A DNA stretch of 64,000 bases from Carcharhinus amblyrhynchos (Eukaryota): assembly GCA_965287045.1 (NCBI GenBank), contig OZ336885.1, positions 38,316,001-38,380,000 of the forward strand, given 5' to 3'. The notes under the pieces are model-generated. The model worked only from the letters and a program-made list of their open reading frames with translations. It had not been told where the DNA came from and searched no databases. Position numbers and translations under genes: made by a program. This document shows positions 1,501 to 24,040 of this stretch, in pieces; the stretch's first letter is position 1, and every line of letters starts with the position of its first letter.

Positions 1501-2234
1501 AAGTTCTTGTTTTAATGGTGCAGGTGTGTGGCTGGAAGCACACTTTTGGAATCCTATTTGGTAACAAAGTTGCAAACAGTCTGCTCCACTCCTGTGAATA
1601 TTGCTTGAGGAGGATGAAGTTGGGACAGATTTGTAGTGGATAGTGGCAACTCTGACAGCAGCCTCATAATTTCCAGGTTTATCTATCTGTATTGTTGCTG
1701 AAAGTTGCCAAAGGATTTCCACTTGAGTAACTTTTAGCACTGATGGGCTAACCACTCTTTCCATGGTAAAATAAAGGCTGAATGAGTGCAAAGGAAAAAT
1801 GGAGGCAGATACCTAGGTCTCTCATTTAATAGAAACAGATGTGCACAGAAGTGAATGTTTACTAGGTTTTAAACTGGAGCGCTTTCAATAAAGCCTGCCA
1901 AAGAGTAGCTTCCTTTGGATTTTCAATTTTTTATTGTCCTTTTGTCACTGACATTTGCAGTGCAAAACATCTTATGCACATTTGTGTAGAGTATCTTTTA
2001 TCATGAATTTAGAACTGTATTTTCTATTCAGTTATTTTTGGCACCAACATATAATGTTTAATCTAGTTTTGTGTATTAATGAGTGAAATGGTGACATTTT
2101 TAATCTTGTGTTGAATACTGTGTATTCTACTTTCAGCAATTGAAACCCTGCATCTGTAAGTACAAGGACACAAGAAAAACAAGCTTTTGAGATTGGGATT
2201 GAAATTCTAAAGCTTTGCTGTTTCAAATAATGTG

Positions 2235-4002
2235 ATGAGAATTCAATATCAAGACAACCAAGAAAGAACATCTGAAGAGCTTATGCCTTGGTTTTCTGAT
2301 CAGCCTCCTCATGAATTTGTGATGAAATCTTCTGAGAGCACCGTAATGCAAACAACTGAGGATGTCCAAGATGATGTGAATTTGACACTTGGTGATGCAA
2401 GAAATTCTATTGAACATCATTGTCCAATTTGTGATCAATGCTTTTCTTTTGGTAGTCTTTTAACACAACACATGCGCATGCACGCCAATGAAAAGCGTCC
2501 ATTTTGTGACCATAGAACTTCCCAGAAAGCAAATTTGAAAGTTCATCTTCAAAAGCACAAGGTAGACCATTTGCAGCAAGGTAGAAAAACCGGAAGAAAT
2601 AAGGCTAATCTGTCATCTGCGAGCTTTGAAATCCCAAAAACTTTGCCGAATAGTATCTGTTCAAATGACACTGAAATGAATGAGACTGATTCAATAAATG
2701 GTGTTGCATTGTTCCTGGATGATTTGGAAGGAAGTATTGCAGCCCAAGCTGAAGAATGTCCACCTCTCCCTTGCATGTTTTGTAATAAGGTTTTTCGACA
2801 CTCTGAAGAACTCCGTCACCATGTAGTGATACAGCACCGGCCCACATTATGCGAGCCTGCCGTTCTCCGTGTGGAGGAGGGGTTGAGTCCTATTGTTGAG
2901 GCCCACGTTACAGTAAGCTCTCCAGAACAGGAGGCAAATGATGAAGATGACGGTGAACTCAGCTGCAAAGTGTGTGGACTGACCTGTGAGAGTGCTTTGA
3001 GTTTGGAGACGCACATGAGGAAGCACAAGGATTCATTTACCTATGGTTGTAATGTATGTGGACGACGGTTTAAGGAACCCTGGTTTCTGAAAAACCACAT
3101 GCGAACACATTTGAGTAAAGCTAGGGGAAAATCTCAGCAGGATTTGGAAGGTCCTGCAACCATCAACAACGTTGCGACGCAGGAATCGCTTTCAGGAAAT
3201 GTTGTGTCTCCTTATAAAATGTGCATGATCTGTGGATTTCTTTTCCCAAATAAAGACAGCTTGAAGGAACATAATAAAGTTCACAGTAAGGATCTGCCTG
3301 ATGATGATAGAATGGATGATTACTATTTAAATCCGGAAGTTGCAACATCACAGGAAACATTCCTGCAAATGCTAAATTTAAGCCCCCTCTTGTCACCAAA
3401 TTGTAAATCCGTGAAGTTGGGCAAATGGATACCCGAACTTGATCCTTTCAATACGTACCAAGCTTGGCAGCTGGCCACTAAGGGGAAGGTGGCAGTTGGC
3501 CGAGAGAATGTGAAAGATCCAGGGCAAATAGCAAACTCTGAGAATGAAGAGGAGCCCTCTGACAAAGAGGATTCCAGTGAACATTGGACCACCGATAAAG
3601 GCAGTAATGGTCCTACCTTGGAGAACCTTGAAAAACCTAAAATCAAGAACAGCAATATAGGCCAGAATGGACCACCTGCTCTGGGCGATGTCGAAATTGA
3701 CCCCAAGTTAACCCAGAATAAACTTAAACCCACCGACTGCACAACAAAACTTAAACCGACTGACTGCACGATGTGTGGTAAGATTTTTAGAACCTACCAT
3801 CAGTTAGTACTCCACTCCAGAGTACACCGGAAAGGCAGGAAAAGTGTGGAGAATCCTCCAGTTTCAGCAGATGGGGAAGCTGGCACTCAATCTATAGATT
3901 CTGTTACGGCAATTGAAGACCACAGCCCAGGAACTGACAAACCTGAGGAGGGTTCTGAAGAGGGCTCAGAAGATGGAGTACTAGGAGAAGGACTTTCATC
4001 AG
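2235..4002 (+). CDS. ZNF217: ZNF217 coding exon 1 (N-terminal extra ZF pair plus ZF1-ZF5)
   Basis: First ATG at 2235 after an in-frame TAA at 2208. Contains the ZNF217 signature peptides QHRPTLCEPAVLRVE, HKDSFTYGCNVCGRRFKEPWFLKNHMRTH, LDPFNTYQAWQLATKGKVA and FRTYHQLVLHSRVH. Phase-1 donor TCAG|GTAGGA at 4002/4003. Candidate upstream acceptors at 2031 or 2136. Confidence 0.95.
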
Positions 4003-5139
4003 GTAGGAAAATATGAAACTATTTGGATGCTTGGGTTTAATGCTCTAAGTGCTTGTTGATTACCATTTTTCAAAATTGTAAAGTCCCCCTTTTTTTGTCT
4101 TGAATAAGAATCTGTGTGGAAAAACTCTGCCACTGAATCTGTTAGATAAAGCCAAAATTTTAGGTGATCCTGTAGTCCAATGCAGTAACGTTTCAAAAAT
4201 GGAGTAGTCTTGCCAAATTCTAAGACTTTTCTTAAAAAAAAACTGAAGAATTAGTTTTAATTACTACCCATCATCTCAAAACATTAATTGGGGAGAATCC
4301 AAATTCACGTTTTAATAAGAAACTATGTTGTGACATTTTAAGTTGTAATTGAATCAAGTGAGCTTATTGAGCTAAAATACTTGAGACTCCTTTTTGCTTA
4401 TTTATTGCTCTTCATTCTAAGTTTACACCACAGGGAATTGCAGTAGAACATATTGTCATAAAATTGTTATAATAGTGTTCAAATGAAACACATTATTGAT
4501 TTACTGATAAAGTATTCTAATATCTGTAAATAATTAAAACCAGCTTTGTGTTTTAAGAATCTCATCCTGTATTCCAATACACATTTTAATTCTTTTCCAC
4601 GTCTGCGGAAGAGTCCAAGCCATTCGCGTCAAATCCATTGCGGGATTTGATCAAACGTGTAATGAATCTGAAACTAAATATGTTTGGTCCTGCGAAAATT
4701 GCTTCCATAGGTGACGAGGAAAGGCAAAAAACACTTAATATTCACAGCAGTTGCCAACTGTTTTTGAGCTATACTAGGAAATAGTTCAATGCAACAACAC
4801 TTTTTATTAAAGAATGGATTCCTGCTGCTAATGTTTAATGCCATTTTTAATGCATTTCAATTCAAAACTTGAATTAAAGTGTAATGTTCTTCTGATGCCT
4901 TGTAATGTAAAAGTGCTTGAAATGGTGTTGCCTCTTTCTGCTGTAAGCATGCTACAGATACATCTAGAGATGAGCAAGTGGAACTCCTCCACTGCACAGA
5001 CTTGATTTTATAGATTTAAAACTCAGCAATACCAAATGTGAAGATTAAATTAACTTCCAAAAAGTTTACGGGCATGTAATTGGAGTAGCTTGCAACTATT
5101 GCTTTTAATTGATAGAAGCATCTTTTCTTCTAGGGCAAA

Positions 5140-11327: not shown

Positions 11328-11540
<213 letters not shown>

Positions 11541-15822: not shown

Positions 15823-17544
15823 GTGAAAAGCCTCATAGATGTCCTCTCTGTGACTATGCTGCAGCGCAAAAGACCTCACTTAAATATCACTTGGAGCGAC
15901 ATCATAAGGGTGAGCAGAAAAAGGCTGAAGAAAAGAGTGATCCTCCAAAGGTTTCACTGGCATCTCCAAAATTGGAAGTACTACCAAAAGGAAGTGATGA
16001 ACCTGTTCAGGAGTCTGTAGACTCAAAAAAGTTGTTTACAGATTCTTCGGGCAGTGCCAAAGATTTAGGTGCAGACTTTTCTCGGAGGAAAAACAAACCG
16101 ATCCATTCTTCTCGCCCGATTTTTCCGAATGCTATCTTTACAAACGTGAGTAGAGAGTTCCCAGACTTGAACAGGGATACTAGTTCACTTAACAGTCGCC
16201 GGATTTTCTCTAACGCAATGCTGCCACACCATGAGAAAACAAAGGATGAGAAGGTGGTGAGTGAGTTGCACAGGACTGACTCTGACCCAAAGGTAGTTAC
16301 TGATCCGGGCAATTCCAAGATTTTGGAGGAATGTTCAATGGAAGCATTGCCAGAAGCTGGTGCACAACAGAATAGTGCTAAAAATACAAGATGGGAACCT
16401 GCTTTGAGAAGTGACCAATATTATGTTAGCGGTAGACTTAGAATAGAGGACTTCAGTGATCGATCTGAATCCAGCTCATTAGAAAAGCCCTTGAATCTCT
16501 GCACCATGGTGCATCAGCAAAGCCTGTGTAGTGACAGAAGTCCTTGGGGAAAAGCATCTACCTCAGTTTCCAACAGTGCCTTACTGAGCAACGCATGCCC
16601 AATTTGTACTTACAGAACTTTGTACCCAGAGGTCTTAGTGATGCACCAAAGGTTGGTACATAAATATAACACTGACCCAAGTCCAATAAATGGAATTCGA
16701 AGTGCTGTTTGCAGTGGGTCAGTTAAAAGCAGACGCACTGGATGTCCTCCTGCACTATTAGGTCAAGATGTCTCTTCACTTGCCACCAAAGAAATGACCA
16801 GAGAATTTTATCGTCGGACCAAGTCACCACCACCAGCAGCTTCACCAGATGCTCCAAACTTGTTGCTTGGGAAGGCATCATCATCATCCTCCTCCTCCTC
16901 ATTACCCCATTCTCCGTGCAATAATTTCCTTCCTTCTGTGGCAGGATCCAGACCTTCAGGTGACTTTAAAGCATTTAAGGTGTCCCAGAATCCTAACTTG
17001 CAAGTAGAAAATTATGGACCAATGCATACTGAACTTAGACAGACACCGGATGTGCAAAAGATGGAAAGAAGTGGATCATCAGAAGCCAGCAATAGTAAGA
17101 GAAATATGCCTGAAAGACCTGGTATCAAGTTGGCCTATGAACCTGATGGACCTAGGGGACCCTTCCTTAGATTTGACAGTTGGGCTCCAAATGCAAGCAA
17201 AACGTGTCATACTAATGTGTCCGAGAATCAGGGAGGCTTGGACTCTCATGAGCCTACAGCTAAAAAAATGAAAATAAGCAGTCCTTTAAGAAATGACCAG
17301 CTTGCATTTGGCATTAGGAGGGGTGCCCCAGGAAGAAATTTAAAACTGTTATCTCAGGAGATGCCCCCTGTTCAGGCACGAAACTCTGGGGTCTCGTCTA
17401 AGTCTGGCTCGGCCTTGGATTCAAATGGAGTTGACTCTCATTGGAATGTATTGAAACTTTTGAAGTCCTACGGCCCTCAAGATTTTGCCTCACTATATAA
17501 TAATTGTGGACCCAGTAATAGAGATCCTAACATTGGTCAAGAAG
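15823..17544 (+). CDS. ZNF217: ZNF217 coding exon 3 (ZF7, ZF8, CtBP-binding PLNL and RRT motifs)
   Basis: Acceptor ttgtttttacag|GT. Encodes GEKPHRCPLCDYAAAQKTSLKYHLERHHK, EKPLNLC, CPICTYRTLYPEVLVMHQRLVHKY and SRRTGCPPALLG. Phase-1 donor GAAG|gtaggt. Confidence 0.95.
16488..16502 (+). other. PXDLS-like CtBP-binding motif (PLNLC)
   Basis: EKPLNLC at the position of human EKPLNLS. Confidence 0.8.
16731..16757 (+). other. RRTGxPPxL CtBP-binding motif
   Basis: RRTGCPPAL, identical to the human ZNF217 motif. Confidence 0.9.
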
Positions 17545-23933: not shown

Positions 23934-24040
23934 GGAAGAGGCCTTTCCAGTATCTGCAGCACTCTAACAGTATGTCGCAGAAAAGGAGCATTAATCATTG
24001 TCATAGTGGATCTTTAGACAAAGAGTACATGACCCAGTGA
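23934..24040 (+). CDS. ZNF217: ZNF217 last coding exon
   Basis: Acceptor tttacatttacacag|GG. Translates (G)KRPFQYLQHSNSMSQKRSINHCHSGSLDKEYMTQ*, similar to the human C-terminus GKRPVSYQHLSNSMAQKR. Spliced CDS is 3723 nt = 1240 aa + stop. Confidence 0.9.

Follow-up and report, generated by a model that had tools for sequence, protein, structure and literature searches.

The question raised by this locus is whether a shark ZNF217 that starts with a partly broken pair of zinc fingers records a step in the loss of fingers that led to the human protein. Human ZNF217 has eight C2H2 fingers, of which ZF1-4 bind CoREST and ZF6-7 bind DNA, as stated in the accessible part of PMC11905140. We have analyzed a window of 64,000 nucleotides from Carcharhinus amblyrhynchos (the window being the whole of this stretch of DNA) in which the ZNF217 reading frame includes a finger pair like the one that opens ZNF516, ZNF536 and ZNF219. 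The account that we prefer, and consider probable as a whole, is that this pair was inherited from an ancestor common to the paralogs, that finger 1 stayed intact, and that finger 2 lost its first Cys by a deletion shared with other sharks and with it, likely, its zinc binding.

The ZNF217 gene and its N-terminal pair

The frame at 2211-4016 is open over 601 codons, and the top protein matches of this ORF are annotated shark and ray ZNF217s. Over residues 40-330 the identity to the ZNF217 of Mustelus asterias was 97%, and that protein, 96% identical and with nine intact C2H2 patterns, mapped onto the window as four exons (tblastn). ZF1-5, ZF6-7 and ZF8 of the ZNF217 core are all present in the window. 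The features are as follows.

2136..4002, + strand: first coding exon of ZNF217, containing the leader, the N-terminal pair and core fingers ZF1-5; the RNA-like contigs X5 and X7 end exactly there, with AG/GT flanks
2235..2237, + strand: first in-frame ATG, with G at -3; predicted start
2421..2483, + strand: finger 1, an intact C2H2 finger (Cys63, Cys66, His79, His83); Pfam PF00096
2484..2498, + strand: shortened linker and Arg88 (CGT, 2496-2498), from the alignment to Heterodontus and other intact relatives
2499..2558, + strand: finger 2 remnant (Cys91, recognition helix, His104, His108), from alignment and codons
11356..11481, + strand: exon of ZF6, 126 nt, first half of the DNA-binding pair
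15823..17544, + strand: exon of ZF7, ZF8 and the C-terminal region, located by tblastn with the protein of Mustelus; AG/GT dinucleotides give the inferred splice sites
23934..24040, + strand: last coding exon, ending at the stop codon

X5 and X7 are RNA-like runs from two other organisms that have ends at 2136 and 4002 and continue into the exon at 11356. Their status as RNA is presumed; ends placed exactly at exon borders are what spliced RNA would give. The junction of the upstream exon lies outside the window. Further in-frame ATGs, also 5' of the pair, were found at 2283, 2322 and 2346. The models of annotated relatives place the start at the first Met, at the second, or further upstream. 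At 2230-2237 an ATG followed by TGA forms a start-stop element that overlaps the first in-frame ATG, and the residues encoded across it are identical in the long models of Mobula, Hemitrygon and Heterodontus.

Three observations concern the rest of the coding sequence. The ZF6 exon (11356-11481) has the same phase at both ends, and Callorhinchus and Geotrypetes have models that lack exactly this finger, which suggests that skipping of this exon in frame is old; it would disrupt the DNA-binding pair. Immediately 5' of ZF5 a 9-residue tandem duplication (3712-3774) occurs in the window, in Mustelus and in the two Scyliorhinus, and the 18 other elasmobranchs scored by pattern lack it (Heptranchias was unmatched); the coelacanth model has a tandem duplication of its own at the same place. 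The Pristis model (P0005) contains an internal repeat of ~70 residues duplicating core ZF1, a candidate for either a real repeat or an assembly error.

The translation of 2235-4001 reproduced exactly the peptide quoted in the earlier note, with Cys63 at 2421, His83 at 2481-2483 and His108 at 2556-2558. Finger 1 has the pattern C-x2-C-x12-H-x3-H with a hydrophobic core and matched Pfam zf-C2H2 with an E value of 4e-8 (33.7 bits, 71-aa piece). Added to the core it is a ninth intact finger, one above the human number, as the earlier note had it. Only five residues separate finger 1 from the remnant of finger 2, which begins Pro-Phe-Cys and has its His codons at 2544 and 2556. Compared with Heterodontus ZNF217 the window is exactly 3 residues shorter and has Arg88 where the first Cys is expected, a net 9-nt in-frame deletion at 2484-2498 that takes out the first Cys of finger 2. 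The description from which we started, an intact finger 1 and a finger 2 some three residues short and missing its first Cys, is thus accurate. Three canonical zinc ligands are left in the remnant instead of four, and its match is limited to the C-terminal portion of zf-H2C2_5 (positions 6-25 of the 26 in the profile). Two complete fingers joined by a 7-residue His-to-Cys linker, as seen in Heterodontus and six others, are not found in the window. The CGT codon could have arisen by one deletion that fused the Pro and Cys codons, or by a codon deletion plus a point change.

One DNA run, which may come from the source of this DNA, and the RNA-like runs X5 and X7 cross the site with no indel there, and a fourth run did not align; the sole difference within the pair was an Arg/His change at 2476, in finger 1. 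The same deletion was found in ten annotated shark proteins. The 9-base gap is genuine and sits in a spliced exon. AlphaFold gave a beta-beta-alpha fold for finger 1 (pLDDT 87-88) and a long helix with a low-confidence hairpin for the remnant. The intact finger of a skate, modeled from the same alignment, looks alike, so that the predictions do not discriminate between a broken and an intact finger 2.

Distribution and origin of the pair

We aligned the window exon with its counterparts in 22 named elasmobranch species, using one isoform each and leaving out the Logan skate duplicates. A chimaera model was also aligned but starts too late for scoring, the Callorhinchus models beginning inside or after the finger 2 helix. 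All four ligands of finger 1 are present in 23/23 elasmobranch sequences. Finger 2 is intact in seven (Heterodontus, Pristiophorus, Heptranchias, Narcine and three skates), eleven carry the three-residue deletion (the window, Mustelus, two Scyliorhinus, Cetorhinus, Carcharodon, Rhincodon, Stegostoma, two Chiloscyllium and Hemiscyllium), and five have the full linker with the first Cys changed to Arg or His (Pristis, two Mobula, Hypanus and Hemitrygon). In a tree built from 1130 columns, with the pair excluded, the 11 deletion carriers were monophyletic (97.7/100) with Heterodontus outside, and the five Cys-substituted rays formed a separate clade (95/95). With the species placed in what we take to be their orders, the deletion arose once, as a derived state of the carpet, mackerel and ground sharks, and the Cys was lost independently a second time in the clade of sawfish plus stingrays and mantas, so the same ligand was lost twice. 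The earlier note had asked whether the deletion is shared among sharks; it is shared by those three groups and is absent from Heterodontus, Pristiophorus and Heptranchias. Loss of the first Cys is thus not typical of shark ZNF217, contrary to what the note implied, since seven elasmobranchs keep both fingers. As a clean rare genomic change, the deletion groups the carpet, mackerel and ground sharks and leaves Heterodontus out, in agreement with the position of Heterodontiformes as sister to the other galeomorphs in the consulted text of PMC7995966, a point on which trees have differed.

When proteins were searched with the pair region of Heterodontus, 12 ZNF217s of elasmobranchs came first and then multi-finger proteins, nearly all ZNF236, and no new ZNF217 appeared among the matches listed (best 120 of 129). 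In bony vertebrates a finger 5' of core ZF1 was found in 3 of 144 ZNF217-like proteins, namely two Geotrypetes isoforms and Rhinatrema. The set was mostly from amniotes, with 141 proteins scored by pattern and 3 judged by eye, and it consists of annotated models that may hide upstream frames. A third caecilian model has no such finger, nor do the coelacanth and lungfish models, nor 20 more from bichir, bowfin, teleosts and newt, as far as annotations go. The caecilian finger has four ligands, aligns without gaps to finger 2, has a changed helix and stands 69 residues before ZF1, compared with 71 in sharks. The caecilian models P0420 and P0056 (residues 1-40) start at a Met homologous to the helix of finger 1. 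When eight tetrapod N-terminal extensions were compared with the two caecilian fingers in a search for remnants (16 comparisons), the lowest shuffle P values were 0.011 and 0.027, nonsignificant after correction. Taken at face value, these sequences would mean that finger 2 survived into tetrapods and that the pair disappeared bit by bit on several occasions. The shark state then represents decay on a side branch, off the path to mammals, from an ancestral ZNF217 that likely had ten fingers. It is not the intermediate stage toward the human protein that the earlier note had proposed, as the deletion is a derived event and the caecilians keep the opposite half, finger 2 only.

The genome of the window has three paralogs with an intact pair at the corresponding N-terminal place, which we take from their motifs to be ZNF536-, ZNF516- and ZNF219-like. 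The Heterodontus ZNF217 pair is identical to these at 30-31 of 51 positions (16-17 of 23 for finger 2 alone), compared with 22/51 for its own ZF6-7 and 13/51 for its ZF2-3, and confirms the type assigned to the pair from the motif. The distance from the pair to the next finger is also similar, 71 residues to core ZF1 in ZNF217 and 76-91 in the paralogs. These resemblances establish homology between the ZNF217 pair and that at the N-terminus of ZNF516/536/219. The pair was likely inherited from the common ancestor of ZNF217, ZNF516, ZNF536 and ZNF219 and so likely is older than all four genes. A SALL-type gene lies on the same contig, 1 to 7 Mb away, at three of the four loci (ZNF217 and two paralogs), which fits an origin in old duplicated blocks. 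The identity of these neighbours was examined for the one next to ZNF217 alone (L006 121-2820, minus strand, ~1 Mb from the window), whose best PDB match is SALL4; the similar genes are on the paralog contigs L005 and L007. In human, SALL4 and ZNF217 are presumably linked as well.

Constraint on the pair and readings of the remnant

Rates were obtained as parsimony counts on the elasmobranch tree. ZF6-7 had no change over 52 sites. Among 40 zinc-ligand sites every change was in finger 2, with none in the other 36. Chiloscyllium punctatum has lost one residue between the two His of finger 2, and changes of His to Asn (Scyliorhinus) and to Arg (Stegostoma) appear in deletion carriers only, as one would expect had loss of the first Cys put an end to zinc binding. 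The site vacated by this Cys changes between Arg and His four times in the clade, one of only 8 in 1215 columns with 4 changes, and an Arg or a His ancestor is equally parsimonious. The N-terminal fingers evolve faster than the other fingers even where intact (about 0.35 vs 0.14 changes per site in the deletion clade, P 0.03-0.04). The remnant had a relative rate of 0.62 in the deletion clade, where finger 2 of the intact lineages had 0.60 (P 0.47 for the broken against the intact state), and this absence of an increase after the break counts against our preferred account. The remnant was slower than the pooled disordered regions (7 changes over 20 sites, P 0.008, in a test that ignores rate variation). 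It falls at the 20th percentile of non-finger 20-residue windows, about 20% of them being equally conserved, so that its conservation is not significant against local windows and continued function is no more than possible. The recognition helix is present, as noted before; its retention is as yet no evidence of function.

Under the account of decay, the sequences suggest the following course. Finger 2 of an inherited ancestral pair would have lost its first Cys by the 9-base in-frame deletion and would likely no longer bind zinc. Without the metal the pair presumably cannot read DNA in tandem; for a similar pair, that of SALL4, loss of a zinc ligand or a change in the linker weakens DNA binding (PMC9838217, in the part consulted). 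By analogy with human ZNF217, DNA targeting would depend on ZF6-7, which are invariant, while ZF1-4 would bind CoREST, and these intact fingers may have made the N-terminal pair dispensable and open to repeated erosion. Finger 1 is likely still a folded finger under weak constraint, with an auxiliary role that is probably protein binding. As a mechanism, it is nothing unusual for a redundant finger to lose one of its zinc ligands.

The alternative that survives best, although we hold it to be unlikely, is that the remnant was repurposed, as a zinc-free helix packed on finger 1 or on a partner, or as a His-Cys-His-His finger where a His occupies the old Cys position, selection having favoured, in both losses, a change from reading DNA to binding a partner. 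The unchanged rate speaks for it, and so does the near-invariance of the helix after the break, its eight residues having 1 change in the deletion clade vs 4 in intact lineages. Lys98, Leu101, Lys102 and Cys91 are moreover invariant across 28 aligned family members. At the vacated Cys site 9 of the 16 broken sequences have His, and none has Cys. Both helix His are kept in 6 of the 9 His carriers, which makes zinc binding possible in these six and counts against the account of decay; in the other 3/9, however, another His ligand is gone. The conservation of the remnant, furthermore, is matched by the 20% of non-finger windows given above. Arg/His exchanges are common over the whole protein (23, vs 7 for Arg/Cys), and by a hand calculation from these counts the probability that all 4 of 4 changes go to His is about 0.3. 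CGT to CAT is a CpG transition, the codons being known for the window alone. These background exchange counts do not support the idea that His was selected over Cys at this position. A partner-binding role is also consistent with a second-hand statement, in the accessible part of PMC9455175, that CHD4 seems to be a binding partner of the four N-terminal ZNF219 fingers, and this is the one hint that suggests, by analogy, such a role for finger 1.

A convergent version of this idea appears to us quite unlikely. It supposes that the same ligand was disabled twice while the helix stayed nearly constant, that a His then took the vacated position in several lineages, and that selection thereby turned a double finger that reads DNA into a module that binds partners (as a zinc-free helix or a His-Cys-His-His finger). 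If it were true, the caecilians with finger 2 only would show that each finger can work without the other and that the pair was still present after tetrapods arose.

That the whole pair is a functionless relic, by a downstream translation start or by drift, with the slow evolution of shark proteins mimicking conservation, we regard as very improbable. Finger 1 does fall within the range of non-finger windows (26th percentile, deletion clade), bony vertebrates manage without the pair, and the start codon is a predicted one. However, the ligands of finger 1 are invariant and spliced RNA-like contigs span the region. No stop or frameshift was found upstream of or within the pair in 23/23 elasmobranch sequences, in-frame indels only, as holds partly by construction in annotated models. 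In 5/23 sequences the stretch from finger 2 to core ZF1 contains no Met, and a start at a downstream ATG would cut ZF1; in the others the Met positions are unshared. With four in-frame ATGs before it and five species without a Met from there to ZF1, the pair is likely translated. Finally, an assembly or sequencing error behind the 9-base gap has nothing in its favour and practically no chance of being right, and is refuted by the 3 of 4 runs that cover the site and the 10 annotated species with the same deletion.

The pair among known zinc-finger systems

In the openly accessible main texts on the ZNF217 family, shark ZNF217, its evolution and degenerate fingers we found no description of the pair. 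It is not described in ZNF217 in the accessible parts of PMC11439700, PMC6061687, PMC11886822, PMC13047888 and PMC12939413, nor in those of PMC10410575, PMC12558893, PMC9545347 and PMC5612949. Its decay is apparently undescribed, and the database models of sharks already include the residues. Ancestral ZNF217 was likely ten-fingered like the paralogs and the human eight-finger form a truncation, which corrects the picture of this oncogene family. The living species offer a natural series, with both fingers, finger 1 only (reached by two routes), finger 2 only and neither, useful for testing the function of the poorly mapped N-terminal pair of ZNF516/536/219.

Among known systems, the Z* finger of ZNF750 also departs from the CCHH consensus and, although called degenerate, does bind zinc, according to the consulted portion of bioRxiv 10.1101/2023.06.10.544471. 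This is a point against the loss of zinc binding in the remnant. Z* swaps its last ligand and keeps four, whereas the remnant in the window has three, a shortened linker and no conserved substitute, His93 being replaced by Arg in 7 of the 16 broken sequences. SALL4 ZFC4, a reader of AT-rich DNA in the accessible text of PMC9838217, is another comparison; the SALL4 and SALL3 pairs match the ZNF217 pair in the PDB with E values of about 1e-6, and SALL4 Znf7 resembles it in the Asn at +3 and the small residue at +2 of the second finger. This similarity is far below that of the paralogs, however, and generic C2H2 proteins score equal or higher.

Human ZNF217 has the orthologous core, with ZF1-8 in the same order and spacing as in the shark, and shark ZF6-7 are nearly identical to the tetrapod versions. 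Binding to CoREST, CtBP and DNA is known from the human protein only. The shark protein differs by ~110 additional N-terminal residues that contain one intact and one broken finger, the start Met of the tetrapod and fish models being mostly 3' of the pair. In ZNF516, ZNF536 and ZNF219 the pair is in the same position and has a canonical linker and all eight ligands, nearly invariant, whereas the ZNF217 pair has a drifted linker and Ala for Gly at helix position 2 and, in the window, is also without its first Cys.
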